A stretch of DNA of 64,000 bases from an uncultured Candidatus Actinomarina sp. Its GTDB lineage: Bacteria; Actinomycetota; Acidimicrobiia; Actinomarinales; Actinomarinaceae. Under the pieces are notes generated by a model, which saw nothing but the letters and a program-made list of their open reading frames with translations, was not told the DNA's origin and ran no database searches. The position numbers were made by a program, and so were the translations under genes. Where the stretch lies: contig CACMHQ010000003.1 of assembly GCA_902613615.1 (NCBI GenBank), positions 61,758 to 125,757 of the forward strand. Reading direction: 5' to 3'. This document shows, one piece after another, positions 34,889 through 62,140 of this stretch; position 1 is the stretch's first letter, and every line of letters starts with the position of its first letter.

Positions 34889-34894
34889 CTTTAA

Positions 34895-35983: not shown

Positions 35984-36010
35984 TTCATTATTTAGATTTA
36001 TAATTTGCTG

Positions 36011-36997: not shown

Positions 36998-37288
36998 TCT
37001 AAAATTTTTATTCTTGATTATCTATATGTCTTTGTAAGTTTTCTCGTTTTTTTAGTCTTATTTTATTTCAATGGAAGAGGTTTTTTTATTGCTCCTAAAT
37101 TATATTATTTTTAAAAAAAGGCATATACCTTTAGAAATCCTTAAAACAAAAACCTCAAATCTTTATCCTATTTTTGGATCCATATAATCGATATTTGAGA
37201 AATAATTAAGAAACAATTCTGAAATAATCATTTAACTTTTAAGAGGTCTCGCAATCTGAGTTCTATATTATGTTATTACAAAGTTAAA

Positions 37289-38962: not shown

Positions 38963-39002
38963 ATAAGTTATACTTAGCTCAGGTCAAATGGTTTGTCCTT
39001 AC

Positions 39003-39046
39003 CTGAAAAACAAGGGGTCAGCAGTTCGATTCTGCATCTAGCCACA
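39003..39046 (+). repeat. direct repeat of tRNA-Phe 3' half (att-like), 3 mismatches
   Basis: CTGAAAAACAAGGGGTCaGCAGTTCGATTCTGCaTCTaGCCACA versus 34926-34969 (41/44). Confidence 0.93.
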
Positions 39047-39190
39047 AAGTTTTTTACTAGTGAACACAAAACTGTGCCAATAGCTATCCAAAACATCAAT
39101 AGTTATTGGGGGTAGTTTTTTCCTCGAATTTAGGCATGGAAGAAATTAGAGAAACAGATAGGTTTAATTAAAAAGTTATAAAACCCTAGA

Positions 39191-40093
39191 TTACTTTTCT
39201 TTAAAAATATTTATAACGAAGCCAGTTATTGCAAGTTGAGCCCCAAGAATAATAAAGAGAAACAGTATATCGTCACTGATGATTGTATCTTTTATACTGA
39301 GAACCCATAAAGCTATGTTGTAAATAAATATTAACAATCCAGTTAGAAAAATAATCAATCCAGGAATTATTAAAGTTTGTAATGTCCTTTTATAAATGTA
39401 AAGCCCTATCAGGTTTCCAAAAACAATTATTGGATATTTAATTCCAATGAATGATTTTCCTTCAGACCTTTGTTTTAAATTTATATCAACTTCATCAATT
39501 TTAAGATCTCTTAACTTTGCATCTAGGAGTATTTGCTGAGCTGCATTGTAGTTCCCAATAATTTTTGAGTTAGCAAGGTATTTCTTACTTAGATATATGA
39601 ATCCATTAGTAGGATCAGATATATCAATGGAAAAAAGTTTTAAAAATATTTTAAATATTTTACTTCCAAATCTTCTATGTAAAGGCATTTTATAATCTGA
39701 ACTTTTATGAAATCTATTTCCGTAAATTACATCTTTATTTGTATACATATCATTTTTTAGAAAGTTGTCTAAATCATCTAGATCCATTTGTCCATCACCA
39801 TCAACTTTAAACATACCGTTTACGCCTGTTTCTTTTGAGTGCATACATAATTCTCTTATCGCATTACCTAAACCTTTATTTTCGTCAACATACAGAAGTT
39901 CAATGTCTTCTAATTCTTCTAGAATTTCTCTTGAATTATCGGATGACCCATCGTCAAAAAACACTATTTTTAAGATCATGTCATATTTTTTTTCTAAATC
40001 TGAAATTTTAATTTTTAAATCTTCATAAAGCTTTTTTACATTTTTTTCTTCATTAAAAACAGGAATGCAAATGTTTATTGTACTTTTCGACAT
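39191..40093 (-). CDS. GT2 polyprenyl-phosphate sugar synthase (DPM/GtrB-like)
   Basis: IPVFNEE, FDDGSSD, NKGLG, VDGDGQ, DPTNGF; two C-terminal TM helices. Confidence 0.9.
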   Translation of the reverse strand: MSKSTINICIPVFNEEKNVKKLYEDLKIKISDLEKKYDMILKIVFFDDGSSDNSREILEELEDIELLYVDENKGLGNAIRELCMHSKETGVNGMFKVDGDGQMDLDDLDNFLKNDMYTNKDVIYGNRFHKSSDYKMPLHRRFGSKIFKIFLKLFSIDISDPTNGFIYLSKKYLANSKIIGNYNAAQQILLDAKLRDLKIDEVDINLKQRSEGKSFIGIKYPIIVFGNLIGLYIYKRTLQTLIIPGLIIFLTGLLIFIYNIALWVLSIKDTIISDDILFLFIILGAQLAITGFVINIFKEK

Positions 40094-40135
40094 ACATTCA
40101 ATATAATCAATTAAACCTTTTTAAAAAGAAGAATT

Positions 40136-40510
40136 TTGTTAAACCAATTTTTAAGATTTCAAGCAAACTCAATTTTGAGTGTAACTTTACGCTCCTCTGC
40201 AATTTATTTATTTACAGATATATTTAGATATGAATATAGCCTTGTTTTTTGGATTTCATTTGCAGTAGTAACAACAAACAGTTACTTCATACAAAAAAAA
40301 TATGTATTTAAAGCAAGTTCAAAACAATCTTTTCTTAAATACAACTTTGTTACTGTAGCATTAAGCTTTATTGAATTTTTCTTTTCCAACTTTTTAAGAT
40401 TCTATTTTGAACTAAATGTATATGCTTTTTTAATTGCTGGTGGGACTGTTTTTTTAATGAGATTTTTATTGAATAAATATTTTGTTTTTGGAAGTAAAAG
40501 TGAAAAATAA
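40136..40510 (+). CDS. GtrA-family flippase
   Basis: 124 aa, 4 TM; QFLRF...NSYFIQKKYVF...FLLNKYFVF. Confidence 0.85.
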   Translation: MLNQFLRFQANSILSVTLRSSAIYLFTDIFRYEYSLVFWISFAVVTTNSYFIQKKYVFKASSKQSFLKYNFVTVALSFIEFFFSNFLRFYFELNVYAFLIAGGTVFLMRFLLNKYFVFGSKSEK

Positions 40511-42104
40511 AAAATTAAAAAAGATTGTTGTCATCTTATTTTATTTCCTCCTTCCTTTGTTGTTTCTGAAAATCGATTATAGATTTATAGAGACTTTCAA
40601 CTGTTGTCAAGATGACCACGATTATTATTCACATGCTGAAACAATTGCTTTAGATTTTGATTTAAATTATGAAAATCAATTTGTAGGGTTTGAGACAGAA
40701 CGATACAACAACAATGGTAAGGTTGCTCCGAGAGGCTTTATTGGTACAGGAATATTTTCCAGTCCGTTTCTTTTCATTGGAAATTTATTTGAAAGTTTAT
40801 TTAATTTTTCAAACAATCTTTTTAATTTGAGAATCGCAATTTATTCTTTATCTTCAATATTTTATTTTTATTTAACCATCTATTTGATGACTAAAGTGTT
40901 TGATATCTTAAATATCAAACTTAATCCAAACCTTATATTTATAATTTTTTTTGGTTCTGGTATCAGCTATTTTGCATTTGAACGATACAGCATGTCTCAT
41001 ATATATGAGGCATTTTCTATAACTTTGATTATTTACTTATCTGTAAGTTTCTACAAAAAAACAGGTGGTAATAAAAATTATTACTCGATTCTAATTCCAT
41101 TAGCTACGCTTTTATCATTCTCAGTTAGGTGGGTAAATTATTTTATATTTTTTATTCCATTAATAGTTAAATTATTATTCAATGAAAAACTGCAAACAAA
41201 AAATCAAATTCTTAAGAATAAATATTTTTATGTGTCATACGGAATTTCTATTCTATTGTTCCAGTATTTAAACCACCTAACATATGGAATAATTACATTT
41301 AATCCAGAAGATATCTATGGCAAATCAAATAGGTTATTCACATTTTTCAATAATGACATCGGAATATTTTTTAGTAAAGTTGCAAATTCTTTTTATGTAA
41401 TATTAGTTTCTCCTGAGTTTGGAATTTTTTGGTTTTCACCAATAATTTTTTGTTCTCTGTTTTTACTTTCTAGATATATTTTTGAGAAACAACACAGGAA
41501 TAAACTTTTACAATACATTTTTGTCTTGTTTATTTATCTTATCCCTTTTGGAATTGTAACAGTATGGCAATCAACAGCCTCTTCTTATGGGTTTAGGTAT
41601 CTATATTCGTTAGTACCAATTTCAGTTTTAATTTTTGGTAAATATTTGGAAACAAATAATAAAGGATTAATTTCAAAATATATAATTTTATTTTCTATAT
41701 TTTCAATGTTGTCTATTTTGTTTTTTGAGACATCAGATACAACATCACTTCGAAACAATATTAATTCTTTTGGTTCAGATGATAGATTCTCTCAACCAGA
41801 TTATTTATTTGGGCTTTTTAACTCGTTTGGAGATTTAAATGCTTATCTTAAAATATTTGTAACAAGTTTTGTTGGTGTAATTATTTTTAAGACGTTTTCA
41901 ATTTTATTTGGTATGGATAATTTACTTAAATATTTAGATACTTTTGGGCTACCTGTTGACAACTTAGATTTTCAAAATTTTGTATATCAAATTCAGGATA
42001 TTGATTTAATTAAAATAGCTATCTTTACCTCATTATTTTTATCAATCATATTTGGATTTTATAAATTAAATAAAAATAAAAATTCTGTTTTAAATTTAAG
42101 TTAG
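40500..42104 (+). CDS. GT-C type membrane glycosyltransferase (GtrC-like)
   Basis: First loop DDHDYY...DFDL, about 12 TM, SMSH, YGFRYL; GTG 40500 overlaps the gtrA end. Confidence 0.7.
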   Translation: MKNKKLKKIVVILFYFLLPLLFLKIDYRFIETFNCCQDDHDYYSHAETIALDFDLNYENQFVGFETERYNNNGKVAPRGFIGTGIFSSPFLFIGNLFESLFNFSNNLFNLRIAIYSLSSIFYFYLTIYLMTKVFDILNIKLNPNLIFIIFFGSGISYFAFERYSMSHIYEAFSITLIIYLSVSFYKKTGGNKNYYSILIPLATLLSFSVRWVNYFIFFIPLIVKLLFNEKLQTKNQILKNKYFYVSYGISILLFQYLNHLTYGIITFNPEDIYGKSNRLFTFFNNDIGIFFSKVANSFYVILVSPEFGIFWFSPIIFCSLFLLSRYIFEKQHRNKLLQYIFVLFIYLIPFGIVTVWQSTASSYGFRYLYSLVPISVLIFGKYLETNNKGLISKYIILFSIFSMLSILFFETSDTTSLRNNINSFGSDDRFSQPDYLFGLFNSFGDLNAYLKIFVTSFVGVIIFKTFSILFGMDNLLKYLDTFGLPVDNLDFQNFVYQIQDIDLIKIAIFTSLFLSIIFGFYKLNKNKNSVLNLS

Positions 42105-42120
42105 TTTATTTACAAAATTA

Positions 42121-42165
42121 TCTGAAAAACAAGGGGTCGGCAGTTCGGTTCTGCCTCTGGCCACA
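42121..42165 (+). repeat. direct repeat of tRNA-Phe 3' half (att-like), 1 mismatch
   Basis: TCTGAAAAACAAGGGGTCGGCAGTTCGgTTCTGCCTCTGGCCACA versus 34925-34969 (44/45). Confidence 0.95.
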
Positions 42166-42229
42166 GGGTTTTTAATTTTTAAAAACAAAACATCGCACGA
42201 TATGTCGTCCAAATTTATATAATTTACTT

Positions 42230-42478
42230 ATGAATTTTTTTCAGCTTATTTATGCTTATATTAAAAAAAATCTTAGAACCTCTCAAGAAACAGAAGATTC
42301 GGATGAAAGAAGAAAACAATGGTTCAAAATAGTGTTTGGCATTGTACTTGCTTTAGGATATGGGGGACTTCATGTACCTCCAAATGTAAGCGTTAGTGAA
42401 GTTATTTATGCTTTAGGAATTCTTTTTATAACTTTATATGTCGTATTCTGGGTTTTAAAATACTTTAAACTCATTTAA
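42230..42478 (+). CDS. small two-TM membrane protein
   Basis: 82 aa; TATAAT 6 nt before ATG. Confidence 0.7.
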   Translation: MNFFQLIYAYIKKNLRTSQETEDSDERRKQWFKIVFGIVLALGYGGLHVPPNVSVSEVIYALGILFITLYVVFWVLKYFKLI

Positions 42479-42496
42479 AACAATTAAGGTACATAT

Positions 42497-42709
42497 ATGT
42501 TTGATAGATTTAAAAACTTAGATAAAAAACAAAAATTAGAACTTTATAAAGTACTCGGCTGGTCCATTTGTGCTCTTATAGGAGGTGCAGGTGGCGCAAA
42601 TCAGATAGGTGTAGGCGCTGATTTGGGAGATATAATATTGGGTTGGACTATATGTCTTGTAATAGTTTTTGTAGTCTTTAGAATACTTAGAGTTCTTAAA
42701 ATAATTTAG
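42497..42709 (+). CDS. small two-TM membrane protein (possible paralog of the previous gene)
   Basis: 70 aa; TAAGGT RBS; similar C-terminus. Confidence 0.7.
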   Translation: MFDRFKNLDKKQKLELYKVLGWSICALIGGAGGANQIGVGADLGDIILGWTICLVIVFVVFRILRVLKII

Positions 42710-42726
42710 ATTTATATAATTTTCCA

Positions 42727-43320
42727 ATGAGATTTTCAAAAGAAGAAGAATACCTGCGTCAAAAAGATAAAAAATTAAAAAAAATTATTGATAAAAATGG
42801 GCATATTAGTTTTAAGTCGAATAAAAAAAACCAATTTGATACTCTTGTAGGCATAGTTATCTCACAATTTATATCAACAAAAGCAGCGAATTCTATTTTT
42901 AAAAATATTAGGGAAAACTTTAATTCAGAATATTTAAATGAAAGACATTTTCGTAATAAAACAGTATATGAAATTAAAAAATTAGGATTAAGTTCCAATA
43001 AAGCCAAAACAATAAAAGAGCTTTCAGATTTATACTTAAATAAAGATATCGGTGATTTATCAAAATTAAGCGATCAAGATTTAAATAATAAGTTATTAAC
43101 TATATTTGGAATTGGTCCTTGGTCAGTAAATATGTTTGAAATTTTTTGTATTGGTAAATTAGATATATTTTCGTCAAAAGACGCAGGGCTGAGATTAGCA
43201 ATGAATAATTTTGGAATTATTAAAAAAGATAGTGAGTGGAAAAAATATGATGAATATGCAATGAAATGGTCCCCTTATAGATCTATTGCATCAATTCATT
43301 TATGGAAGACAGTTGATTAG
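42727..43320 (+). CDS. DNA-3-methyladenine glycosylase II family (HhH-GPD)
   Basis: IVISQFISTKAA, GLSSNKAKTI, GIGPWS, DAGL, WSPYRSIA. Confidence 0.9.
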   Translation: MRFSKEEEYLRQKDKKLKKIIDKNGHISFKSNKKNQFDTLVGIVISQFISTKAANSIFKNIRENFNSEYLNERHFRNKTVYEIKKLGLSSNKAKTIKELSDLYLNKDIGDLSKLSDQDLNNKLLTIFGIGPWSVNMFEIFCIGKLDIFSSKDAGLRLAMNNFGIIKKDSEWKKYDEYAMKWSPYRSIASIHLWKTVD

Positions 43321-43329
43321 AGTTTATAT

Positions 43330-44022
43330 ATGGAACCTATTCCATTAGAAAAAAATTTAAACTGGTGGTGGTATAAAGCAAAAAGAAACTTGCTTAAACA
43401 CATTATTGAACATGGTAAAACAAAAAGTAATTTAAAAATTCTTGAAATAGGTCCTGGTTTAGGGAATAATTTAGAAACCTTAAATAATTATGGATCTGTT
43501 GACATATTAGAACTTGAACCAACTTTCTTATCATATCTAATTGAACACAAGAGTGACCTATTTAATAATACATATAATAATTTAGAAGAGATAAATTCAA
43601 GTTACGACTTGATTGTACTATTAGACGTCTTGGAACACATTGAAGAATCGAAACTATTTATGAAAAAAATAGAATCTCTGATGAAAGATCAAGGTTTAGT
43701 TATTGTCGGTGTTCCAGCGTATCAAAGCTTATGGAGTGCACATGACGAAAAACTTCTTCACTTTAGAAGATATAACTGGAAGAAGCTGAAGGATGATTGC
43801 AGTAATTTCCATATAGTAGAGAGGTACGGTCTAAATTATTTATTACTTCCAATAAGATACATTCAAATAAAATTCAATAGAATTCCATCAATAAATGAAA
43901 ATGGAAGGTTTCTTAATAATATTTTGTATCTGATTTCACTCATTGAAACTATTTTTAGAAAAATTAAAATTAACCCCAAGTTTGGTATTTCATTGTATGT
44001 CAAATTACATAAAAAAAAATAA
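43330..44022 (+). CDS. class I SAM-dependent methyltransferase
   Basis: WWWYKAKR, LEIGPGLG, LLDVLEHI, VPAYQSLWSAHDE...HFRRY (type common in glycan loci). Confidence 0.9.
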   Translation: MEPIPLEKNLNWWWYKAKRNLLKHIIEHGKTKSNLKILEIGPGLGNNLETLNNYGSVDILELEPTFLSYLIEHKSDLFNNTYNNLEEINSSYDLIVLLDVLEHIEESKLFMKKIESLMKDQGLVIVGVPAYQSLWSAHDEKLLHFRRYNWKKLKDDCSNFHIVERYGLNYLLLPIRYIQIKFNRIPSINENGRFLNNILYLISLIETIFRKIKINPKFGISLYVKLHKKK

Positions 44023-44060
44023 TATGTTCTTTTATTAGTTAGTTTTTATAATTGTAATAT

Positions 44061-44777
44061 ATGAATTTACTAATTTGCATGGCAGGATTAAATACTAGAT
44101 TTCATAATGTTGGATTTGATATTCCGAAATACCTCTTACCTTGGAATAATTCTATAATCATTTTTGATATTTTAAAAAACTTAACAGCTGATAATGTTTA
44201 TTTAATTGCTCATCAACGTGACGAATATTTCAAAAAAGAACTTATTAAAGCCATAAATCCTCTTGGATTATCTAAAAAGAATTTGTTTTATATTGGTGAT
44301 ACTGATGGTCAAGCTCAGACTGCTAAAATTGGTTTACAGAGTATAAATATAAATAATGAACCAGTATTTTTTCACAATGCAGACACTATATTAATAAATA
44401 GAAAACTTTCTAAAGTTTCTAACCAACTTTCTAAAAAATTTTCAGCATATATTGACATTTTTTATGGAGATTCAAAAAAATATTCTTATGTAGAAATATC
44501 TGAAGACAATCTCGTCAAAGATATTAAAGAAAAAAAAGTTATTTCAAAATTTGCTTCATCTGGTTTATACGGGTTTCAAAATAAAGAAATATTTCTTAAG
44601 TACTATAAAAAATTAGAGAAGAAAAAAGGAGAATTATATATCTCTGATGTTCTTAAAAAAATGATCCAATTTGAAGAAAAAATATTTACAAATAAAATAT
44701 TTAAAAAAGATAAAACAGTTGTACTTGGTTCCCCTGAAGAATATGGAATTGAAGTAACGAAAAGTATAGTTACTTAA
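44061..44777 (+). CDS. sugar-phosphate nucleotidyltransferase (BcbE-like)
   Basis: MAGLNTRF...DIPKYLL, TDGQAQT, NADT, IKEK..IS..ASSGLYGF, ELYIS, LGSPEE. Confidence 0.88.
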   Translation: MNLLICMAGLNTRFHNVGFDIPKYLLPWNNSIIIFDILKNLTADNVYLIAHQRDEYFKKELIKAINPLGLSKKNLFYIGDTDGQAQTAKIGLQSININNEPVFFHNADTILINRKLSKVSNQLSKKFSAYIDIFYGDSKKYSYVEISEDNLVKDIKEKKVISKFASSGLYGFQNKEIFLKYYKKLEKKKGELYISDVLKKMIQFEEKIFTNKIFKKDKTVVLGSPEEYGIEVTKSIVT

Positions 44778-44778
44778 T

Positions 44779-45732
44779 ATGGGAAAAAAAATATTATTTA
44801 AAGGGGGCTCCTTAAGCAAGACCTATCGAGATGGAAATAAAGTAGTAAAAACTATTGCATTAAATGAAGAAAGAGAATACGGATACGTTAGATGGTATTC
44901 TCAACAAAAAAAAATGCAAAAATATGTAGGTCTTTATCCTGAGTTATTTCCAAAAATTTACAAAATAAAAAATAATGAATTAGAAGCTGAAATTCAAATG
45001 GAATATATGGAAGGTTTCTATGATATTAAAACAGTATTTCAACAAAAAGAACTCTCTTTAGAAGAACTTAATAAAATAAACGAATCTATCTGGGAAGGAT
45101 TTGACAAATTACATTCAAACAATTTTGATTCAATAAATGGACTAGGCAATTTGTACTTTCAAGAAGAAGTAGTTCAAAAATTAAATGATGCATTAAACAC
45201 CTCAGAAGAATTTAAAGACTTTTTTAGTATCAAAAATTATAATTTTGGTGATAAGATTATTCCAGGATTTCAATCTTACAAAGATTTACTTTCAAATTTT
45301 TTTAAAAAATTAAAACTTGAAAAAGAAGAGCTAATATTTGGCAATCCTACACTTGAGAATATTTTGTATTCTTTTGAGGAAAATAGGTCAGTTTTTATAG
45401 ACCTTTATGAAGAAAGTATTTTAGATAGTAGGTTTTTAGACTATTCGATGGTTCTTCAGTGCTCGAATAGTTACTATGGATATCTAAACGATAATGAACT
45501 AATTGTTCAAAAAGATTATCTTTCTCACAATTTAGAGATACCGTTAAATTTTAAGAATTTTAATTCACTATTTTGTGACAAACTTGAGAGTAAGTATATT
45601 GAATTAATTAAAGTTTTAGAAGCAACTCAATTCTTTAGAATGTTACCTTTCAAATTAAAATCCAATGAACTAATTAAGGCAAAGTATTTTTATGTGCATG
45701 GTTGTAAACTATTAAGCGAGGTATTTAATTGA
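44779..45732 (+). CDS. APH/choline-kinase-fold phosphotransferase (atypical catalytic loop)
   Basis: KGGSLSKT Gly loop, V.K, FPKI, MEYMEG, FGNPTLENIL (for HGDxxxxN), FID. Confidence 0.75.
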   Translation: MGKKILFKGGSLSKTYRDGNKVVKTIALNEEREYGYVRWYSQQKKMQKYVGLYPELFPKIYKIKNNELEAEIQMEYMEGFYDIKTVFQQKELSLEELNKINESIWEGFDKLHSNNFDSINGLGNLYFQEEVVQKLNDALNTSEEFKDFFSIKNYNFGDKIIPGFQSYKDLLSNFFKKLKLEKEELIFGNPTLENILYSFEENRSVFIDLYEESILDSRFLDYSMVLQCSNSYYGYLNDNELIVQKDYLSHNLEIPLNFKNFNSLFCDKLESKYIELIKVLEATQFFRMLPFKLKSNELIKAKYFYVHGCKLLSEVFN

Positions 45733-46868
45733 ATGAAGAGTTAACAATAGATTATAACTTTTTAAAAAAAACTTGGAATCTTAAAGCAGAGTTACCAATC
45801 GATGTAAAAATAATATATTCAACAGATATGTTTGATCCTAAATCTAGTGATTTAACAACTTTGACAAATAACAATAGATTAGTTGTAGTAATCGATAGAG
45901 ATTTTGAAAAAATTTACAAAAAAAAGATAGAAAACTATTTTAAATTAACAAAAATTGATTATAAAATTTGTTCAATTCAAACCGGTGAAAAAAATAAAAA
46001 ATGGAAAACTGTTGAAAAAATATTAAATTTTTTTGAATCGGTATCTGTTTTAAGACAAGAAAATATTGTAATTATTGGTGGAGGAGTTCTTTTAGATATA
46101 GGAGGCTTTGCCTGTAGTATTTACAGAAGGGGAATCCCCTACGTTAAGGTTCCTACAACATTGTTATCTATAGTAGATGCATCAGTAGGTGCGAAAGTTG
46201 GAGTTAATCATTTAGAAAAAAGAAATCGTATAGGAAATTATTACCCTGCATTTCAAACATTAATTGATAAATCCTTTATAAATACTCAAACAGAACGAGA
46301 GATTGTTAACGGCTTAGGGGAAATATTTAAAATCGCTATTATAAAATCTTCAGAACTCTTCAACTTGCTAAATGTTAGCTCTGAAGACTTACTCAAGGAA
46401 AAATTCCAACATGGTGCAGTTCCCGTAAAGGTTATCAACCTTGCAATATCATTGATGTTGGAGGAATTAGGACCAAATCTGTGGGAAAAGAATTTAAAAA
46501 GAGCTGTTGATTTTGGCCATACTTTCAGTCCTGTTATTGAAATAAAAAACATACCAAACCTTCTTCACGGTGAAGCAGTTGCATTAGACTGTCTGTTAAG
46601 CTCTTGCTTATCTTTTGTTAGAGGATATCTTAATAAGTCTTCTCTAGAAAAAATATTTGAAGTAGCAAAAAAATTGAAACTACCTACGTATCATGATGAT
46701 TTTTGTAATTTCTCTTTAATAAAAGATAGCTTAAATGACGCGTGCAAACATAGAAATGGAAATCAGCACATAACATTACCACTAGAAATAGGAAGATATA
46801 AAATTGTTGACGACGTTACAGATTACGAAATTAAAAAAGCAATTGAAGTATTTAAAGGAATGAAATGA
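45729..46868 (+). CDS. sedoheptulose 7-phosphate cyclase, 2-epi-5-epi-valiolone synthase (EEVS) type
   Basis: GGGVLLDIGG, YRRGIPYVKVPTTLLSIVDASVG.K; diagnostic MLEELGPNLWE and KRAVDFGHTFSP; LLHGEAV. Confidence 0.9.
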   Translation: MNEELTIDYNFLKKTWNLKAELPIDVKIIYSTDMFDPKSSDLTTLTNNNRLVVVIDRDFEKIYKKKIENYFKLTKIDYKICSIQTGEKNKKWKTVEKILNFFESVSVLRQENIVIIGGGVLLDIGGFACSIYRRGIPYVKVPTTLLSIVDASVGAKVGVNHLEKRNRIGNYYPAFQTLIDKSFINTQTEREIVNGLGEIFKIAIIKSSELFNLLNVSSEDLLKEKFQHGAVPVKVINLAISLMLEELGPNLWEKNLKRAVDFGHTFSPVIEIKNIPNLLHGEAVALDCLLSSCLSFVRGYLNKSSLEKIFEVAKKLKLPTYHDDFCNFSLIKDSLNDACKHRNGNQHITLPLEIGRYKIVDDVTDYEIKKAIEVFKGMK

Positions 46869-47521
46869 AAAAAGTTTTAATTACTGGAGTAAGTTATGGA
46901 TTAGGCCAAAGTATATCAAAATTACTAATTGATAGTGGTTATTTTATTTATGGAATCTCAAGAACTGAACCAATAAATGAGTTAGTTGAAAATAAAAACT
47001 TTGTTTGGCTTAAAGCAGATATTTCACAATTAAATGAATTAAAAGAAACTTTTGAAATGATTGATGATTTAGATATTCTAATTAACAACGTAGGAATTTA
47101 TTCAAACTCTTTATTTGAAAATGAAAGTACTGAAAATATAGAAAATATAATTGATACTAATTTAAAGGGAAATATCTTTGTAACTAAATTAGCCGTTGAA
47201 AAATTAAGTAAAAATTCCAGAATTATTTTTATAAATTCTGTTGCAGGTTTAAATTACATTAATCAAGAGTCAATTTATGTAGCTACTAAACACGGTTTAT
47301 CAGCTTTTGCAAATGTTTTAGGAAATGAACTTAAGTCGAGAAAGATTAAAGTTACTTCTATTTATCCAGGAGGTATTAACACACCTTTACAAAATCAAAA
47401 TCCTAATAAAGAAAAACTCTTAACTAAAGAATTCGTATCTAATTATATTTTGCAAATTATTGCAGCTAATAATATTGAGTTTAAAAGTATAAGTTTTTAT
47501 CCTGAGATAGAAAACCACTAA
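46865..47521 (+). CDS. short-chain dehydrogenase/reductase
   Basis: ITGVSYGLG, LINNVG, NSVAG, YVATK, PGGINT; ATGA-coupled to the cyclase. Confidence 0.93.
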   Translation: MKKVLITGVSYGLGQSISKLLIDSGYFIYGISRTEPINELVENKNFVWLKADISQLNELKETFEMIDDLDILINNVGIYSNSLFENESTENIENIIDTNLKGNIFVTKLAVEKLSKNSRIIFINSVAGLNYINQESIYVATKHGLSAFANVLGNELKSRKIKVTSIYPGGINTPLQNQNPNKEKLLTKEFVSNYILQIIAANNIEFKSISFYPEIENH

Positions 47522-47604
47522 TTAATTTTACGATAGGAAATTATCAACTTTTACTGGCTTCTTAATCATCAATATTATGTTTCAACAAATATATAATTTA
47601 CATA

Positions 47605-48438
47605 ATGTCAAAAATAAAATTATATATTTCAACTTATAACAACGAAAATAGGATTAACTTAACTGTAGGACGTTTGGCAGAAACAAACAATATAGACAAA
47701 GTTGAAATAAATGTAATTAACAATCATACAAATTTTAAACTTAAAAATTCTAATTTAAAAATAAATGTTATTCATAATGCCACAAGGCCGGATTTTTCAT
47801 CTGGACATTTATCGAGAACCTGGAACCAATGTCTAGTAAATGGATTTAGGTCACTTAAAAATCCAGACTGTGACGTACTTATTACAGCTCAAGATGATAC
47901 TTATTTTGATATTGATTGGGTTAATAAAGTAGAAGAATTAATGACACAATATGAATTTGTACAAAATGGTCATGGAGACCATATTTGTGTATACACCCCT
48001 GTACATGTAAAAAAAACTGGTATTTGGGATGAGAGGTTTTGTGGAATTTCTAGACAGGCCGCTGATTATTTTTTTAGATGTCTACTTTACAATAAAGACA
48101 ATTCATCAATTAATGATATTGGCCATCAAAGAATTAACAATCCAATATTTAACAATGACTTGTTAAAATCTCAAAATTATTTAGTAGACAGTAGAAGTAG
48201 AGAAATCTTTGGCGATGAAGTTTATGATAATACTACAGATAATAACGATTCAATATCTTTAAATTTATTAAAAGAAAAATATGGAGAAGATCCTTTTCCT
48301 TGGGATGAAAATCTCTTTAAAAGAATACCAAATATATTAAAAAAAATTGAGAGAGCTAAATTAAGTAAAAATTATATGTTTTATCCCTACTTTGAAAAAG
48401 ATATTCTTAATTTGAATAAGAAAAACTTTTTACTTTAA
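47605..48438 (+). CDS. hypothetical protein, putative GT-A fold transferase
   Basis: ISTYN, VINN, LSRTWN, AQDD (DxD-like), GIWDERF, ADYF.R resemble GT2 elements. Confidence 0.6.
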   Translation: MSKIKLYISTYNNENRINLTVGRLAETNNIDKVEINVINNHTNFKLKNSNLKINVIHNATRPDFSSGHLSRTWNQCLVNGFRSLKNPDCDVLITAQDDTYFDIDWVNKVEELMTQYEFVQNGHGDHICVYTPVHVKKTGIWDERFCGISRQAADYFFRCLLYNKDNSSINDIGHQRINNPIFNNDLLKSQNYLVDSRSREIFGDEVYDNTTDNNDSISLNLLKEKYGEDPFPWDENLFKRIPNILKKIERAKLSKNYMFYPYFEKDILNLNKKNFLL

Positions 48439-48529
48439 CTTATGATTCTCTCAAAATAAATAATATAAATAGTTTCAAATACAAAAATACATATTATCAA
48501 TTGTAGGAAATATTTTTTAAAGTAGTGAA

Positions 48530-49471
48530 TTAAGTATTTAAAGTTTTACTAATTATGTAGCTTGGTCTTCTTTTTATATCTACAAATATCCTTCCAACAT
48601 ATTGTCCAATAATACTTAGAGAAAGAAGTTGAATTCCTGAAAGAAAATAAATTGATGATAATCCAAAAGTCCACCCAAGTATTGTTGTGCCATATCTAAA
48701 TTTATGAAAAAGCGAATATGCTGAAACTAATAAACTTCCAATAGATATTGTAAAGCCAAGAAGTGCTATAAAATTTATAGGTTTTGAAGAAAAACTAAAT
48801 ATACCATTTAATCCCAGACTAAATAATTTTCTGTATGTCATTGTTGCATTTCCATACAGTCTTTTTTCCTTTATTACATCAACATACGCAGTTTTAAAAC
48901 CAAGATATGTTCGTAGTCCATTGAAATATGTAAAATTTTCTGGAAATTTTTTCATTTCATTTATAACTTCTTTATCAATCAATGAAAAGTGACCAACATC
49001 TTTTGGTATATCAATATCAGTAAGTTTTTTTTGGATATTAAAGAATATAGAAAAAATTATTTTGCGAAAAAAATTTTCATCTCTATCAATTCGTTTAGCT
49101 AGTACTACCTGATAACCTTTTTCCCATTCCTTTATAAATTCTTTTATATATTTTGGATTATCTTGAAGATCAGCGTCCATAATTATAAGAGAGTCATCGT
49201 TGCTTAATTCAATCCCTGCTTGAATAGCACTTTGATGTCCAAAATTTCGTGACAAACTGATTCCATTAATATGTTCAAAATTTTTTGAGAGTTCTTCAAT
49301 TTTCTTCCATGTATCATCTGTTGATCCGTCATCAACAAAAGTAAATTCAAATAAATAATCTAAATTTTTGGTCTCTTCACATACTTTTTTATGTATAACA
49401 TCTATGTTTTCTTGTTCATTGTGACAAGGAAGTATTATTTTAAAAGTTTCCATATTTATTAAATAATACAA
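48530..49471 (-). CDS. GT2 GtrB/ArnC-like polyprenyl-phosphate glycosyltransferase
   Basis: LPCHNEQ, VDDGSTD, LSRNFGHQSA, MDADLQD, IIGQYVGRIF...KRRPSYII; true start may be ATG 49453. Confidence 0.93.
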   Translation of the reverse strand: MYYLINMETFKIILPCHNEQENIDVIHKKVCEETKNLDYLFEFTFVDDGSTDDTWKKIEELSKNFEHINGISLSRNFGHQSAIQAGIELSNDDSLIIMDADLQDNPKYIKEFIKEWEKGYQVVLAKRIDRDENFFRKIIFSIFFNIQKKLTDIDIPKDVGHFSLIDKEVINEMKKFPENFTYFNGLRTYLGFKTAYVDVIKEKRLYGNATMTYRKLFSLGLNGIFSFSSKPINFIALLGFTISIGSLLVSAYSLFHKFRYGTTILGWTFGLSSIYFLSGIQLLSLSIIGQYVGRIFVDIKRRPSYIISKTLNT

Positions 49472-49510
49472 TGATTATAAAGCTTTCAATTAAAATTAAT
49501 ACCAATAAAT

Positions 49511-51313
49511 ATGATTAAAAATACTATTAAAATCGGACCCTATTTAATTATATTTTTTGGTTTATTACTTTCAATATTTTTAAATAGTTACACTAATTTA
49601 GACGATTGTATTTCATATACTTACAACTATGACCAAAATAACGATCTTATAAATTTTATCTTTGATTACTCAATTAAAAAACAAAATGTAAACTATCTCC
49701 AATTAGATCTAATTCCAAATTACGGTGGATTATTTTGCATTGGAAGTGAACTATATTTAGATGGTGTAGCAAATCAAACATTTACTACTTCATTAATTTT
49801 TTATAAATTATATCTAGGCTTAACCACAATTATAATTTTTACCTTATATTCTCTTCAAAAAACAAATTCTATAATAAATTTTTCATTTGTTGTTTTACTT
49901 AATACTGGAATTGTTATGAATATTTTCTTTTCAAAATTAATATTTGATTATCATTTGTTAATTTCACTGTTAGCTATTTTTATCTTTTATCACTTATTCA
50001 AAATAAAAAATTATGATGACAAAAATACTATTTTCAACTTATTTGTTTTTATAAATATATATTTTTTATTATTCAATTACAATTTGTTTTCTTTGTTTTC
50101 AATATTGTTTTTTTATATCTATATAAAGAAGTTCACGTTAGTTAAGAACAAAACGGATGTAACAAATTTATTAAAGTATTCAGTTTGTATTTATTATTTT
50201 TTAAGATTAATCGCAGGCTTGTCTGGATATGAGGGAAATTTAAGAGAATTATGGCAATCTCTATCAAACGGAACTTATGGGGGTTCCCCTGTATTTGCTG
50301 ATCTTTATTATGTGTTTAGAATTTTAAATTGTACTAATTTAACTTGTCCAAATGAATATAACGGATACGGACCATTTTTCGAATTAGTAAATATTAACAA
50401 TAGTTTAAAAATTTCTGTTGGTTTATTAAGTATATTTATAATCAGCTTTCTGATATTTTTTGTTATAGAAACATTTAATAATCTAGGTAAATATAATTTT
50501 TATTTATTTTATTTATTTGTAAGCCCCCCTGTTACTTTTGTTTTAGAAAGAATGAATTTAGATATTTTTATTTTTATTTTTAGTTATTTGGCAATTACTT
50601 TATATAAAAATAATAAGAAATATTCAAGCTTATTTATTTTTTCGTTTTTAATACAACTAAAAATCTATCCCATATTTTTTATTTTTGGATTATTTTTATA
50701 TTTAATATCAGAAAGAAGAAAGAAGGAAATTTTAGGTATTACTGCAACAATATTATTAAACAGTGCCTCAATAGTTTATTTCTTAGTTCAAAACAGGGGA
50801 GATAAAATTCCAAATCCGTACGGGATATCGTGGACATATGGATTACCCTCCCATATCAATAATTATTTAGACTTATTAAAAAGCTCTGAAAGTCTTGGAA
50901 TCTTTTTTGTTGCAACTATATTTATATTTTCATTTTTATTTATTTATAAAAATTTCGATTTTATAAAAGTTGTAAAAGCAAAAAAAGATCCATATATATA
51001 TTGCTTCTTAACAACATTTTTTCTTACAGGATTGTTTTACAATTTTGACTATAGACTATCAATGTTTATTTTTATAATTCCAATTTTAATAAAGGATATA
51101 AAGAATAAATTATTTTATACCATTTCGATTATTTTTCTCTTAACAAGTGTTTCTCCACACTTTTATTTTTTAAATAGCGCAAATATAGGAATTATTGAAC
51201 TGACTCTTCCAATAATTTTTGTAGTAATTAACCATATAACATTTTATATTTTAATTTTTGTATCAATTTTTTATATGGTAAATGATTTGAACAAATATAA
51301 AATAAACAATTAA
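49511..51313 (+). CDS. polytopic membrane protein, putative GT-C (GT87-like)
   Basis: FADL...C...C...YGP loop, LERMNLD, LKIYP, NFDYR; many TM. Confidence 0.7.
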   Translation: MIKNTIKIGPYLIIFFGLLLSIFLNSYTNLDDCISYTYNYDQNNDLINFIFDYSIKKQNVNYLQLDLIPNYGGLFCIGSELYLDGVANQTFTTSLIFYKLYLGLTTIIIFTLYSLQKTNSIINFSFVVLLNTGIVMNIFFSKLIFDYHLLISLLAIFIFYHLFKIKNYDDKNTIFNLFVFINIYFLLFNYNLFSLFSILFFYIYIKKFTLVKNKTDVTNLLKYSVCIYYFLRLIAGLSGYEGNLRELWQSLSNGTYGGSPVFADLYYVFRILNCTNLTCPNEYNGYGPFFELVNINNSLKISVGLLSIFIISFLIFFVIETFNNLGKYNFYLFYLFVSPPVTFVLERMNLDIFIFIFSYLAITLYKNNKKYSSLFIFSFLIQLKIYPIFFIFGLFLYLISERRKKEILGITATILLNSASIVYFLVQNRGDKIPNPYGISWTYGLPSHINNYLDLLKSSESLGIFFVATIFIFSFLFIYKNFDFIKVVKAKKDPYIYCFLTTFFLTGLFYNFDYRLSMFIFIIPILIKDIKNKLFYTISIIFLLTSVSPHFYFLNSANIGIIELTLPIIFVVINHITFYILIFVSIFYMVNDLNKYKINN

Positions 51314-51386
51314 CTTTTTTTCACTATCCAAATTTATATTGTTATTGCAATTCTAAATATGCTGTTAAATTGAAATAAAGAGATTA

Positions 51387-52493
51387 ATGAACAAATTTAA
51401 AAAAATAGCTTTTATTAAATTTGGGGGGCTTTCTTCTGGTGGAACCGAAGTATCATTCCAAAATGTAGCGAAGAGTCTGAGTGAAAAATTTAGTGTTGAT
51501 TATTATTATTGTGACTCTGCTCCTTATATTGGTTCTAACTGGGTACACCCTGATACAGACATAGATAGACAAAATTTTTTAGAGATATCAAAAGTTAATC
51601 TAATCAAATTTGAAGTCGGATTTAAAGACGTTACAACAAAAACTCATGATTGGGTTGAAACTAATTTTTGGGAAAAGTTTAATGAAGATGATTATTCATT
51701 ATTATTTATTACATCTGCTGGACATCCAGAATATCCATTTCATAAAATTAAAAAAATACCAATCGTAAATATAGTCACTGTAAATGGTGGAGTTAATAAT
51801 CAAGAAAATATAATAAAAACAATTTTAATTTCTAAAAATTCTGCAGAAACGTGGATAAATCAAGGTGGAAATCAAAACAAAATTTCAATTATTCCTCTTT
51901 GTAGAGAGCCAATAATGCGCTCTAATGAAAATTACCGTTCTGAATTGAAAATTAATGATAAGTTCGTATTTGGATTTCATCAAAGAAGCGATGACAGTAT
52001 ATTTTCTGAAGTTCCACTGAAATCTTTTAAAAGAATCGAAAATGAAGACAATATGTTCTTTTTGTTAGGTGGATCAAAACTTTACGAAGAGCAATCAAAA
52101 GACCTCTCGATTAAAAATTTTATTAAATTACAACCCACTGCTGATATTAAGGTTTTAGATAAATTTTTAAACACTCTTGATGTATTTTCTCATGGTAGAA
52201 AATACGGTGAGACAATGGGTCTGGTTTTGACTGAGGCAATGAGCTATAACTTACCACTTATTAGTCATAGGGCAGAAAGCAATGCTCAAGAAGAAGTAAT
52301 TGGTCCTGCGGGAAAAGTATTTAATAGAAAAAATATATTTTCTTATTCAAGAGAAATGTTAAAGCTACAAAATAATTATAAGTATTACAAAACAATCTCC
52401 AAAAATTCAAGTCTTAGATTTAAGAATAATTATTCTCATGAAATTATTATTAAAAAATATCTTGAAATAGTAGAAAATATAATTGGAAAATAA
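51387..52493 (+). CDS. GT4-family glycosyltransferase
   Basis: SSGGTE, GETMGLVLTEAM (EX7E). Confidence 0.88.
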   Translation: MNKFKKIAFIKFGGLSSGGTEVSFQNVAKSLSEKFSVDYYYCDSAPYIGSNWVHPDTDIDRQNFLEISKVNLIKFEVGFKDVTTKTHDWVETNFWEKFNEDDYSLLFITSAGHPEYPFHKIKKIPIVNIVTVNGGVNNQENIIKTILISKNSAETWINQGGNQNKISIIPLCREPIMRSNENYRSELKINDKFVFGFHQRSDDSIFSEVPLKSFKRIENEDNMFFLLGGSKLYEEQSKDLSIKNFIKLQPTADIKVLDKFLNTLDVFSHGRKYGETMGLVLTEAMSYNLPLISHRAESNAQEEVIGPAGKVFNRKNIFSYSREMLKLQNNYKYYKTISKNSSLRFKNNYSHEIIIKKYLEIVENIIGK

Positions 52494-52495
52494 TT

Positions 52496-53308
52496 TTAGT
52501 CTTCATCTAATTTAAGAAAATTTTTAATATCGTGTTTTTTCCCATCAAAATATAAATTATTCACATCATATTTATTCTGAGCTTTTTCAAATAATTTTTG
52601 ATTAATTAGATTTAAACCATATCTGATTTCAATAGCAGTTCTTTCAATTTCTTGTAAAGAGTTTTTCTTCGTGCTTAAGCCTTTTCCTAAATTTAAAAAA
52701 TATCCTAAATTAATATTTAGATGATACCCCTTACAGTGTCTTCCTAGCCTCATTGCAAAATCATAATCTGCTCCACTTATAAACTGTTCATCAAATTTGC
52801 CAATTACTTCTAAAACATTTCTTCGAAACATAAAAAAAGGACCAAGAATCATTGAATAGGTGAGCTCACCCTCTCTGTTAATTTCATTTATGTAGGTTCC
52901 TTTTTTTGATTTGTATTTATCAACTATTTTATAATTTCCATATACAAAATCTATTTCTGGTTTGGAATCAAATATTTTAACCATCTCTGATAAAGAATCA
53001 GGTGTCCTTAAGTCATCCAGATTCCACAAACAAATTAATTCGGAATCGGATCTGTCTATTGATATATTCCATGTTGTTGGGAGTAAATAATGCTCATAAT
53101 AAACTTTTTTATTAATATTTAATTTCGAATTTCTTGAAGTTATTTTCTCAATGTAAGTCTCCTCTTTTTTTGATACAGGGTCAACCACTTCTAGAAAAAT
53201 TTCAAAGTCTTTGAAAGTCTGTTTTCTTGCGGATTTTAAGTACGTTTTTAAATAATCTTCAGATTTATAATATGATCCCAAAACTGCTATTTTTGTCATT
53301 TCGTACAC
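52496..53308 (-). CDS. GT2-family glycosyltransferase
   Basis: WN, NLDD, VYGNY, GPFFMFRR, GKFDE, DYDFAMR. Confidence 0.85.
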   Translation of the reverse strand: MYEMTKIAVLGSYYKSEDYLKTYLKSARKQTFKDFEIFLEVVDPVSKKEETYIEKITSRNSKLNINKKVYYEHYLLPTTWNISIDRSDSELICLWNLDDLRTPDSLSEMVKIFDSKPEIDFVYGNYKIVDKYKSKKGTYINEINREGELTYSMILGPFFMFRRNVLEVIGKFDEQFISGADYDFAMRLGRHCKGYHLNINLGYFLNLGKGLSTKKNSLQEIERTAIEIRYGLNLINQKLFEKAQNKYDVNNLYFDGKKHDIKNFLKLDED

Positions 53309-53414
53309 ACTAATTTTGAAAAATGTTTCTTAATCATTTAGCTAATAATATATATGTATTTTTAATAATTTATTTCTATATATAAAAAGTAAAGATATTT
53401 AAAATGTCGTTAAT

Positions 53415-54287
53415 TTGAAAATTGTAGCTTTATTACCTGTTAAAAATGAGGATTGGATATTACCAACAACATTAAAACCTCTATGTGAAATTTCTGACCA
53501 CATAATTGCGGCTGATCAATTTTCTACAGATAAAACAAAAACAATTTTGAGTAATGAAGAAAAAGTTACAATTATTGAAAATGAAGAAGCTACTCACTCT
53601 AATAAAGTTAGATGGAAACTTTTAGATCAATCTCGAAAATTGTTTGGAGAGAATAATTTTATAATTAATCTTGATGCGGATGAAATAATACCTCCCAATC
53701 TATTTAATAAGAAATTAAAACAGATTCAACAATTTCCCGCAGGAACTTTATTCTCAGCTCAATGGACACAACTGTGGAGATCTATAAATAAGTATCGATC
53801 TGATGAGGGGGTTTGGAATCCAAAAAATAATAGAAAATTATTTATGTTTCATGATAATGGGAGACAACAATATAGTAATGAATTTGTTTTAAATGACCAT
53901 ACATCTAGAGTTCCAACAATAAATACAGGAAAATTAATAAATTTAAACATACCGTTAATTCATTTTCAATTTGCTAATTGGGATAGATCTCAGATAAAAC
54001 AAGTTTGGTATCAATGTTCTGAAAAAATTAATGGTGTGGAACCAAAAACTATTAATGAAAAATATTATTATTCAACTAACGAAAATAATTTAAAATTATC
54101 AAAAATAAAATCAAAGTGGTTTAAGAATTTAGAAGTAAACAAATCCATAGAAAACTCTTTGATTAATGAAACATGGTATTACAAAGAAATCAAGGATATG
54201 TTTTTAAAGTATGGAAAAGATGAGTTTAAGGATTTAGATATTTGGTCAAATAAATATGTTCAAGAACTTTCAAATTCTCTAAATTAA
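53415..54287 (+). CDS. GT2-family glycosyltransferase
   Basis: LPVKNE, DQFSTD.T, LDADE, LIHFQF. Confidence 0.85.
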   Translation: MKIVALLPVKNEDWILPTTLKPLCEISDHIIAADQFSTDKTKTILSNEEKVTIIENEEATHSNKVRWKLLDQSRKLFGENNFIINLDADEIIPPNLFNKKLKQIQQFPAGTLFSAQWTQLWRSINKYRSDEGVWNPKNNRKLFMFHDNGRQQYSNEFVLNDHTSRVPTINTGKLINLNIPLIHFQFANWDRSQIKQVWYQCSEKINGVEPKTINEKYYYSTNENNLKLSKIKSKWFKNLEVNKSIENSLINETWYYKEIKDMFLKYGKDEFKDLDIWSNKYVQELSNSLN

Positions 54288-55012: not shown

Positions 55013-55086
55013 TAATGAATATTAAACTTGTTACAAAATTTAAATTGTAAATAAGTTAATAAAATTTAAATCATATAATTTTAATA

Positions 55087-55956: not shown

Positions 55957-55990
55957 TCAACAAAAACACTCCAATTATTTAATCTATTAG

Positions 55991-58671: not shown

Positions 58672-58672
58672 T

Positions 58673-59542: not shown

Positions 59543-59561
59543 TGACTATTGTATTATTGAT

Positions 59562-62106: not shown

Positions 62107-62140
62107 CATTAATTTTTCTTTTGTCTGTAAAATATAATTG

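Follow-up and report, generated by a model that had tools for sequence, protein, structure and literature searches.

We analysed a 64,000-nucleotide stretch of DNA (hereafter the window) from an uncultured Candidatus Actinomarina sp., in which four coupled genes encode a nucleotidyltransferase (NT), a kinase-fold protein (KIN), a cyclase (CYC) and a short-chain dehydrogenase/reductase (SDR), followed by a gene for a predicted glycosyltransferase (GT). The four genes constitute one conserved module whose members stay together while their order and neighbours vary, and this module probably serves to make a nucleotide-activated C7 carbocyclic pseudosugar, that is, a nucleoside diphosphate (NDP)-C7-cyclitol donor for glycoconjugate decoration. 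It is mobile, residing mainly in uncultured T4-like aquatic myophages and occurring here as strain-specific cargo of a host glycan island. The genes are listed below, with EEVS standing for the synthase of 2-epi-5-epi-valiolone and APH for aminoglycoside phosphotransferase.

44061..44777, + strand: nucleotidyltransferase (NT) of the sugar-1-phosphate NTP-transferase superfamily, 238 aa, PF00483
44779..45732, + strand: kinase-fold protein (KIN), APH/choline-kinase-like by predicted fold, with Asn at the catalytic-Asp position, 317 aa
45729..46868, + strand: EEVS-like sedoheptulose-7-phosphate cyclase (CYC), TTG start, 379 aa, PF01761 and PF24621
46865..47521, + strand: classical SDR, presumed cyclitol ketoreductase, 218 aa, adh_short
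47605..48438, + strand: GT-A fold glycosyltransferase (ORPH) by predicted fold, candidate transferase, 277 aa

The junctions are tight. The TAA stop of the NT gene ends at 44777 and the ATG of KIN begins at 44779, leaving a 1-nt gap; the KIN stop (TGA) and the cyclase start (TTG) share the 4 nt TTGA at 45729-45732; and the cyclase stop (TGA) and the SDR start (ATG) share ATGA at 46865-46868. Open reading frame coordinates and junctions, including the separate fifth gene, are as given in the original prediction made from the letters alone, and the identities proposed there (nucleotidyltransferase, kinase fold, sugar-phosphate cyclase, SDR and a GT-A-like protein) are backed by Pfam and NCBIfam matches and by AlphaFold folds. 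The arrangement is far beyond chance, because the same order recurs in 64 of the 80 viral loci surveyed and in 44 of the 80 from metagenomes.

These loci come from a scan of IMG/VR with the cyclase alignment (88 relatives, 80 kept as viral loci), a cyclase scan of metagenomes (122 relatives, 80 kept) and a scan of IMG/VR with the KIN family (126 relatives, 80 kept). The viral and metagenome sets overlap (L123 and L041, for example, are the same contigs) and are not independent. All four genes are present in 71 of the 80 viral loci, the remaining nine being cut by a contig end, and in 64 they lie on one strand, spanning no more than 4.5 kb, as NT-KIN-CYC-SDR; the SDR gene directly follows the cyclase gene in 71. 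Fifty of the 80 metagenome loci hold all four genes, contig ends truncate 28 of the other 30, and the NT-KIN-CYC-SDR order was found in 44. Every one of the 80 viral loci kept from the KIN query contains a cyclase, and an exhaustive search yielded one natural fusion of KIN with a cyclase (P0276, 728 aa, from a high-GC organism), the cyclase half of which is 44% identical to the product of 45729..46868 and keeps the ValA-type motif described below. The order is KIN-CYC-SDR-NT in L009, L086, L091 and L092; L079-L083 contain additional, inserted genes. The cassette also lies in glycan loci of unrelated contexts, namely the window, a Balneolaceae metagenome-assembled genome (MAG; L009), L090 and L149. 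The survey supports the anticipated co-occurrence of the four genes, both in phages and in glycan loci elsewhere. In L149 a three-gene variant (positions 7279-9835) adjoins genes for GDP-mannose dehydratase/epimerase (GDP-fucose genes), a GT11 fucosyltransferase and a LAGLIDADG endonuclease.

The cyclase is a two-domain protein resembling 3-dehydroquinate synthase (DHQS), with matches to the Pfam families PF01761 (DHQ_synthase, 7e-35) and PF24621 (DHQS_C, 2.1e-20). When compared with solved structures by HMMER, it matched the EEVS ValA best (4p53; E 5.5e-81, 275.6 bits), followed by the Anabaena desmethyl-4-deoxygadusol synthase (DDGS) 5tpr at 192.7 bits (E 8.6e-56), the best DHQ synthase at 138.7 bits (E 2.3e-39) and 2-deoxy-scyllo-inosose synthase (DOIS) at 75.7 bits. 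It scores 214.9 bits on the NCBIfam aroB equivalog TIGR01357, below the cut-off of 305, and the genome has a second DHQ_synthase (AroB) gene on a separate contig, C2. Because of the ValA score, the sub-threshold aroB score and the separate DHQS gene, we take the cyclase to be, judged by its sequence, a sedoheptulose-7-phosphate-cyclase-like enzyme of EEVS type and not a shikimate enzyme, with EEVS and the synthase of 2-epi-valiolone (EVS) counted together in this class. The original prediction, which had called it EEVS-like rather than AroB or DDGS, is supported on this point. Housekeeping AroB had also been considered as the identity of the cyclase; it was excluded by the missed aroB cut-off, the ValA score and the separate AroB gene.

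Both motifs on which the original prediction relied are present in the translation (MLEELGPNLWEKNLKRAVDFGHTFSP). In the same HMMER columns, the cyclase reads MLEELGPNLWE...VDFGHTFSP, ValA reads mleelqpnlwe...vdfghsfsp and DDGS reads mlelevpnlhe...iayghtwsp. The PNLWE and VDFGHxFSP stretches are ValA-like and differ from PNLHE and IAYGHTWSP of DDGS, and the ValA-type motif is kept across 24 aligned cyclase homologues. The fingerprint residue list reportedly goes back to Kean in 2014 and Osborn in 2017, and presumably two of its 14 sites separate EEVS from DDGS. The existence of a 14-residue active-site fingerprint for this cyclase family is stated in PMC4426668. Searching plasmids returned generically named 'sedoheptulose 7-phosphate cyclase' genes at 33-39% identity, and several source annotations label homologues '3-dehydroquinate synthase'. 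A quick maximum-likelihood tree of the cyclases, unlabelled and rooted on the genome's own AroB, has a long outgroup branch and several open forks.

KIN has no Pfam, NCBIfam or PHROG match. Its AlphaFold (AF2) model, built on 24 homologues, has a predicted local distance difference test (pLDDT) score of 92.6 and resembles the APH/choline-kinase fold over its full length (VIA Z 17.8-14.5, 220-280 aligned residues), with matches to APH(4)-Ia, Rv3168, choline/ethanolamine kinase, methylthioribose (MTR) kinase, LicA (Z 17.3), fructosamine-3-kinases (FN3K), maltokinase and NahK. The top Foldseek matches, at probability 1.00, are APH(2'')-Ia, MTR kinase, LicA and NahK, and six of the 24 family members weakly match Pfam APH. 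The model points to a bilobal eukaryotic-like kinase fold across the whole protein. Exhaustive searching with a profile brought up 863 relatives (E <= 0.001), of which 53 full-length representatives were aligned with KIN itself. G9, S11, K24, N194 and D208 are invariant in these 54 sequences; going by motif order and the secondary structure of the model, they would include the Gly-rich loop, the beta3 lysine (K24), the catalytic-loop Asn (N194) and the metal-binding Asp (D208) of an ATP site.

The catalytic loop of KIN reads F/H-G-N189-x-T-L-E-N194, which puts Asn at the position of the catalytic Asp (Brenner HxD / HxDxxxxN). All 42 close sequences share this Asn and read (H/F/L)GNxTLEN, whereas all 12 of the most distant relatives keep the Asp (HGDxTxxN). 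Because of this split, the replacement is, on the alignment, a derived, clade-wide trait of the cassette-linked KIN clade. It co-varies with a change after the metal-binding Asp, from IDPN (IDPNxxN in the distant relatives) to ID(P/L)YEE. In an alignment the loop pairs with the HGN loop of JAK2's pseudokinase domain, and the fold matches include a D189N mutant structure of a related phosphotransferase. Because the catalytic Asp is replaced, we do not file KIN as a canonical member of a kinase family; the kinase role assigned to it would follow from the logic of the pathway, which needs a phosphorylation. Of the kinase step proposed originally, the fold has been substantiated (VIA, Foldseek) and the catalytic residue has not. 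The Asn-for-Asp clade is the chief enzymological puzzle of the system. Distant KIN relatives (E ~1e-19 to 1e-21) also occur as C-terminal domains of ~650-720-aa proteins (P0362, P0370, P0376, P0386 and P0388; P0358 and P0367), in which the N-terminus is an LPG_synthase_TM membrane domain or a radical-SAM/SPASM domain.

NT matches NTP_transferase (PF00483) at 38.3 bits against a cut-off of 21.2, and scores 25-42 bits on NCBIfam equivalogs (RmlA, HddC, GlmU and others) whose cut-offs lie at 292-361. The best PDB match of its family profile is the uncharacterised 'nucleoside-diphosphate-sugar pyrophosphorylase' 4evw (E 1.2e-29), followed by RmlA (~1e-6) and GlmU; one partial IspD-like match (E 8e-4) and an ADP-glucose pyrophosphorylase family protein (E 0.005) were also found, and LicC is not among the matches at E <= 0.01. 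NT further matches phrog_3980 (5e-37). It belongs to the sugar-1-phosphate nucleotidyltransferase superfamily of RmlA/GlmU type, outside the functionally defined equivalogs, a placement that assigns neither a nucleotide nor a substrate. The SDR matches adh_short in Pfam (133.7 bits, 7.5e-39), and its nearest solved structures are generic: farnesol dehydrogenase, alcohol dehydrogenases and FabG.

The fifth protein (47605..48438) has no Pfam or NCBIfam match, PF00535 not being detected, and its AF2 model (pLDDT 91.4) shows the GT-A fold that had been suspected. Foldseek matches include 6p61, a Leptospira GT, TarP, WrtF, K4CP, TarS and SpsA (E 2e-7 to 8e-6). In the QDD motif at residues 96-98, all 35 aligned homologues keep Q96 and D98, and at least 90% of them keep D97; among the 577 homologues of the protein, some carry a precomputed PF00535 (GT2) assignment. 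The model suggests a GT-A glycosyltransferase with an acidic DxD-type motif after beta4.

Well over a hundred contigs of uncultured T4-like myophages, of lake and marine origin, contain the cassette, and most of its viral carriers are, as their flanking genes indicate, T4-like myophages. At least two conserved T4-like flank families are shared by 59 of the 80 viral loci. Beside the cassette in the T4-like contigs lie DUF7796 (family f4; 65 of 80), a 236-aa unassigned family (59 of 80), a family of 280 aa with weak GT likeness (56 of 80) and a methyltransferase. On the 146-kb contig behind L041, flank proteins match PHROGs with E down to 1e-139 and are 45-50% identical to proteins of Pelagibacter phage HTVC008M and T4-like Synechococcus phages. 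A large terminase is encoded in four of five phage records tested, and GC content at the T4-like cassette loci is 0.34-0.38. The DUF7796, 236-aa and 280-aa families bracket the cassette at L041 (4041-6308 and 9792-10499) and in about 60 related viral loci, and none is found in the bacterial window. The phage partners f4 (DUF7796) and f5 have no PDB sequence match, and their profiles resemble neither the GT-A gene nor one another; their atlas neighbours are viral hypothetical proteins, with a weak lead to WavE (0.91, 163 shared features). A collection of 50,697 phage records holds no close relative, its six matching records being 26-28% identical, AroB-like and partly bacterial.

The conserved T4-like flanks are absent from 18 of the 80 'viral' loci, and one of these, L090, has the appearance of a glycan locus of bacterial type, its genes including GT10, GT25, GT4, UDP-galactopyranose mutase (UGM), a GHMP kinase and an epimerase. 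Eleven named genomes were found, of which the Balneolaceae MAG (L009) is the only one with the cassette, in a locus with GT2, GT4, an ABC transporter and a DegT fragment. The other ten have the cyclase only (40-42% identical), without NT and KIN: eight Actinomycetota (seven Micrococcaceae, that is, Arthrobacter and Paenarthrobacter, plus Salininema) and two Alphaproteobacteria (Martelella and Roseibium). None of the 64 other genomes of the host's order has the cyclase at E <= 1e-60. Low-GC metagenome contigs contain copies of the whole cassette that are 74-100% identical and form one clade with the window copy, and near-identical DNA is present in marine metagenomes of nine studies, one of which is possibly the source; no RNA data set is listed as containing the operon. 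The quick maximum-likelihood tree of the cyclases places the window clade among sequences of T4-like context, the join having a Shimodaira-Hasegawa-like approximate likelihood ratio test (SH-aLRT) value of 87. This placement fits exchange between phage and host and gives no direction for it.

The host appears, from its gene content, to be an Actinomarinales-type monoderm actinobacterium. Its genome comprises 1,069,948 bases (1.07 Mb) at 32.3% GC and is 86.65% complete; the order consists of one family, with 65 species genomes of ~1 Mb as against 2-4 Mb in class-mates. Two WhiB genes are present, one of them in the window at ~19265-19474 (G000:C3:81022-81231), and neither LpxC nor Omp85 has a match in the genome, an absence not proven at 86.65% completeness. 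A SAR11 host, at first suggested by the low GC content and by the likeness of the phage flanks to pelagimyophages, was rejected on these grounds. As the host appears monoderm, the target would be a wall or capsule glycan and not lipopolysaccharide (LPS); 'envelope' in the original prediction is to be read in this sense. Around the cassette lie WecG/TagA, a Bac_transf initiating enzyme, five GT2 genes, three GT4 genes (one just under the Pfam cut-off) and GT8, together with an FkbM methyltransferase, CysD/CysNC, an epimerase and polytopic membrane proteins. GC content in the island is 0.23-0.28, compared with 0.323 genome-wide. To its left are genes for tRNA-Arg (28495), tRNA-Lys (33197), tRNA-Asp (34814) and tRNA-Phe (34895), spanning 28495-34968. 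Glycosyltransferases, tRNA genes and low GC content together uphold the glycan-island setting given by the original prediction. The neighbouring features are the following.

35057..64000, no strand: flexible envelope-glycan island holding the cassette, right of the tRNA cluster, marked by tRNAs, glycan genes and low GC
43330..44022, + strand: S-adenosylmethionine (SAM) methyltransferase (Methyltransf_23/12/11), 38 nt upstream of NT, possible accessory with a weak link
48530..49471, - strand: polyprenyl-phosphate glycosyltransferase-like GT2 of PgfS/ArnC type (NF047588 PgfS, ArnC, PF00535), context only
49511..51313, + strand: 600-aa protein with ~11 hydrophobic segments (Kyte-Doolittle), possible GT-C-like partner, context only

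Only in L099 and L100, two near-identical contigs, does a counterpart of the methyltransferase adjoin the cassette; other methyltransferases lie near the cassette in its phage and Balneolaceae versions. The GT2 protein matches PgfS (NF047588, 1e-61) and ArnC (6e-42), both below cut-off, and PF00535 (1.8e-28); the product of 49511..51313 has no family match, and a Kyte-Doolittle scan gives 11 hydrophobic segments. Directly after the GT-A gene, this divergent pair (48530-51313) has a layout like that of systems combining a lipid-linked sugar donor with a GT-C enzyme. The four tRNA genes are interleaved with glycan genes, consistent with the tRNA-targeted turnover described for such islands, and a gene with an MpaB/Lcp-type oxygenase domain (32125-32967) lies between tRNA genes at the island edge. 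An HhH-GPD gene (DNA glycosylase superfamily; 42727-43320) in the island is kept, at 45-79% identity, by 12 of the 15 genomes sampled from the genus; L103 and L146 also have such a gene no more than ~2 kb away from the cassette. Beside an opposite-strand 289-aa unassigned gene, 55991-59542 holds CysD and a CysN/APS-kinase fusion, for synthesis of 3'-phosphoadenosine 5'-phosphosulfate (PAPS), which suggest a sulfated envelope glycan.

From what is observed of the genes, namely their order, coupling, folds, family placement, co-occurrence and distribution, we infer the chemical steps of a route, including its nucleotide, phosphorylated position and acceptor. The EEVS-type cyclase would convert sedoheptulose-7-phosphate to 2-epi-5-epi-valiolone (or its C5 epimer) and phosphate, and the SDR would reduce the ring ketone to a cyclitol. 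The APH-fold protein KIN would re-phosphorylate the cyclitol, most likely at the new pseudo-anomeric C1-OH, as do the anomeric kinases of that fold; the RmlA-like NT would turn the cyclitol phosphate into an NDP-cyclitol; and the adjacent GT-A protein or another island transferase would hand either the cyclitol or cyclitol-phosphate on to a glycan of the wall or capsule. The reaction of sedoheptulose-7-phosphate cyclases releases phosphate and leaves an unphosphorylated ring ketone, and therefore a reductase, a kinase and an NT would be the minimal set for making an NDP-cyclitol. The cassette would then be a compact, independently assembled version of the acarbose logic whose product goes to a glycosyl- or phospho-transferase encoded in the glycan locus.

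Several observations weigh against this account. In ordinary APH enzymes, exchanging Asp for Asn at the site replaced in all 42 close KIN sequences is inactivating. L149 has NT-CYC-SDR without KIN within 8 kb, L163 has no NT match, and sequence comparison does not separate EEVS from EVS for this cyclase. The GT-A gene is linked to the cassette in only eight of the 160 surveyed loci (L089, L090, L093 and L099-L103; downstream in L099, L100 and L103, upstream in L101 and L102), and it is absent from the T4-like phage versions, which have DUF7796 and two unassigned families instead. The pseudoglycosyltransferase role originally given to the fifth gene is supported by its GT-A fold and by its recurrence beside the cassette in two different positions, and weakened by this sparse linkage. 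Moreover, a saturated carbasugar-NDP has neither the ring oxygen nor the allylic double bond that stabilise glycosyl transfer and is a poor donor. Direct pseudoglycosyl transfer by the GT-A protein is therefore doubtful; the step may require that the cyclitol be transferred as cyclitol-phosphate or first be dehydrated to an allylic valienol-type ring. The saturated 'valiol' donor of the original route is chemically awkward for a GT-A enzyme. That phages are the main carriers of the cassette fits poorly with the suggested role of the pseudosugar in defence against phage enzymes. A fuller picture, which we offer tentatively as one possibility, is of a mobile, phage-spread module captured by streamlined marine bacteria, in which a C7 carbasugar enters surface or virion glycoconjugates and the Asn-type kinase has a changed mechanism or acceptor.

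The difficulty with the donor would vanish if the cyclitol were transferred as cyclitol-phosphate through a phosphodiester, with the first four steps unchanged, in a process akin to the transfer of glycerol-P, ribitol-P, choline-P or inositol-P from CDP-alcohols or of sugar-1-P from NDP-sugars. Attack at phosphorus removes the problem of displacing NDP from a saturated carbocycle. The pairing of a kinase with an NT and the fold of KIN fit LicA-type alcohol kinase logic (LicA Z 17.3, and a Foldseek match), and a monoderm host with TagA/WecG in the island is what would be expected for teichoic-like wall polymers. However, the NT profile matches RmlA, GlmU and 4evw and not cytidylyltransferases of LicC/TarI type, no LicD, TagF or stealth-type phosphotransferase was recognised beside the cassette, and the linked transferase is a DxD-type GT-A; on balance, this form of transfer seems rather unlikely. 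Somewhat less likely still is a soluble small molecule, such as an inhibitor of the glycosidase or trehalase kind, a pseudo-disaccharide, an osmolyte or a compound resembling gadusol, for which glycan islands and phage hypervariable regions would merely accept cargo. All characterised EEVS pathways, as presented in PMC12904256, PMC4426668 and PMC9200736, yield secreted or soluble metabolites. Methyltransferases are often neighbours of the cassette, and the cyclase family is also used otherwise, since 10 of the 11 named genomes lack NT and KIN. Nucleotide activation, however, implies transfer to an acceptor, the cassette lies among glycosyltransferases in at least four independent contexts, and in a streamlined 1.07-Mb genome it sits in the single island devoted to envelope glycans.

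The carriers raise a further alternative, that the function is primarily one of phages (modification of the virion, of phage DNA or of the infected-cell surface) and the bacterial copy a captured set with little host role. At least two T4-like flank families in 59 of 80 viral loci, terminase in four of five records, the flank matches to HTVC008M and cyanomyophages, the position of the window clade among T4-like-context sequences (SH-aLRT 87) and the lack of the gene in all 64 sister genomes are in keeping with it. We nevertheless regard it as improbable, for the bacterial copies are intact and coupled, they make up a clade whose variants, on low-GC contigs, are 74-100% identical, near-identical DNA recurs in marine metagenomes of nine studies (one possibly the source), the flanks are bacterial glycan genes and a genus-conserved gene, and no DNA-modification genes were recognised beside the cassette. 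The cyclase, finally, might be nothing more than a 3-dehydroquinate synthase, or some other non-C7 cyclase (of DOIS or EboD type), in a cluster handling a normal hexose or heptose. The '3-dehydroquinate synthase' annotations of homologues and the 214.9 bits on the aroB model would suit such an enzyme, but the aroB cut-off of 305 is missed, ValA scores 276 bits as opposed to at most 139 for DHQS and 76 for DOIS, a separate DHQS gene is present and the 24 aligned homologues keep the ValA-type motif, so that we give this last explanation hardly any credence. We retain the NDP-C7-cyclitol donor as the preferred reading of the module.

EEVS-derived C7 cyclitols are known as secreted drugs and sunscreens (acarbose, validamycin, kirkamide and gadusol). 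The original prediction knew of no EEVS-derived envelope modification, and none was found in the literature searched, although supplementary tables and the survey of Osborn et al. (2017) could list such genes. Full-text searching returned no paper linking valiolone with phage biology, the co-occurrences being 'phage' as a vector or in an unrelated sense; the words 'phage' and 'lipopolysaccharide' do not occur in a 2026 cyclitol review; and the main text of a Pelagibacterales O-chain paper has no cyclase, cyclitol or dehydroquinate synthase. On the fuller picture offered tentatively above, the cassette would provide the first carbocyclic sugar mimic in a structural glycan, with linkages uncleavable by glycosidase-type depolymerases. 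If our reading is true, its compact, non-homologous route would shift C7-cyclitol chemistry from secondary metabolism to phage-host surface biology. It would suggest a new class of glycan building block and a widespread, previously unannotated phage auxiliary pathway, and would offer a natural four-enzyme route to NDP-carbasugars for glycoengineering.

Ca. Actinomarinales, with genomes of ~1.1 Mb, are described as having a single tRNA-associated, low-GC, strain-variable envelope-polysaccharide island, fGI1/HVR (PMC7771536; bioRxiv 10.64898/2026.04.03.716425), and the island in the window matches it in tRNAs, low GC, glycan genes and genome size; the main texts of these two papers mention no cyclitol, valiolone or dehydroquinate-synthase-like gene. 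For T4-like aquatic myophages, glycosyltransferase and sugar-nucleotide genes have been described, with a proposed effect on the surface of the host (PMC7029224), and the flanks of cassette contigs are ~45-50% identical to HTVC008M and Synechococcus myophages, linking them to the pelagimyophages and cyanomyophages; valiolone, cyclase and dehydroquinate go unmentioned in the main text of that paper. Pairs of LicA/LicC, NahK or MTR type likewise place an APH-fold small-molecule kinase beside an enzyme of NTP-transferase fold, for surface decoration. By contrast, the substrate in the cassette would be a carbocycle that the cyclase next door makes de novo, and the catalytic Asp of KIN is replaced.

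The closest chemical counterparts are the validamycin and acarbose pathways, with the EEVS enzymes ValA/AcbC, the kinases AcbM/ValC and AcbU, the nucleotidyltransferases AcbR/ValB and the pseudoglycosyltransferases AcbS/VldE. Shared with these pathways are a sedoheptulose-7-phosphate cyclase, redox tailoring, C1 phosphorylation, nucleotidylation and transfer (PMC9200736), and the cassette cyclase is a true homologue of ValA (E 5.5e-81). The same source describes AcbR and ValB as glucose-1-P adenylyltransferase-like and reports an experimentally established acarbose route with more steps, to GDP-valienol (PMC9200736). The cassette, however, has only four genes, without a 7-kinase, 2-epimerase or phosphatase, and the accessory families of those pathways (ROK-type C7 kinase, 2-epimerase, GlgC-like NT and GT-B pseudoglycosyltransferase) were not found among the five genes by Pfam or NCBIfam. 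Unlike the validamycin and acarbose enzymes, KIN has an APH fold, NT is 4evw/RmlA-like and the transferase candidate is a GT-A. The likeness drawn originally to these pathways extends to their logic and to the cyclase, and stops short of the kinase, NT and pseudoglycosyltransferase, which are not homologous. Whereas those pathways reside in actinomycete secondary-metabolite clusters, the cassette resides in an envelope-glycan island and in phage genomes. The cyclase chemistry is known, and the enzyme set, the genomic setting and the carriers are new.

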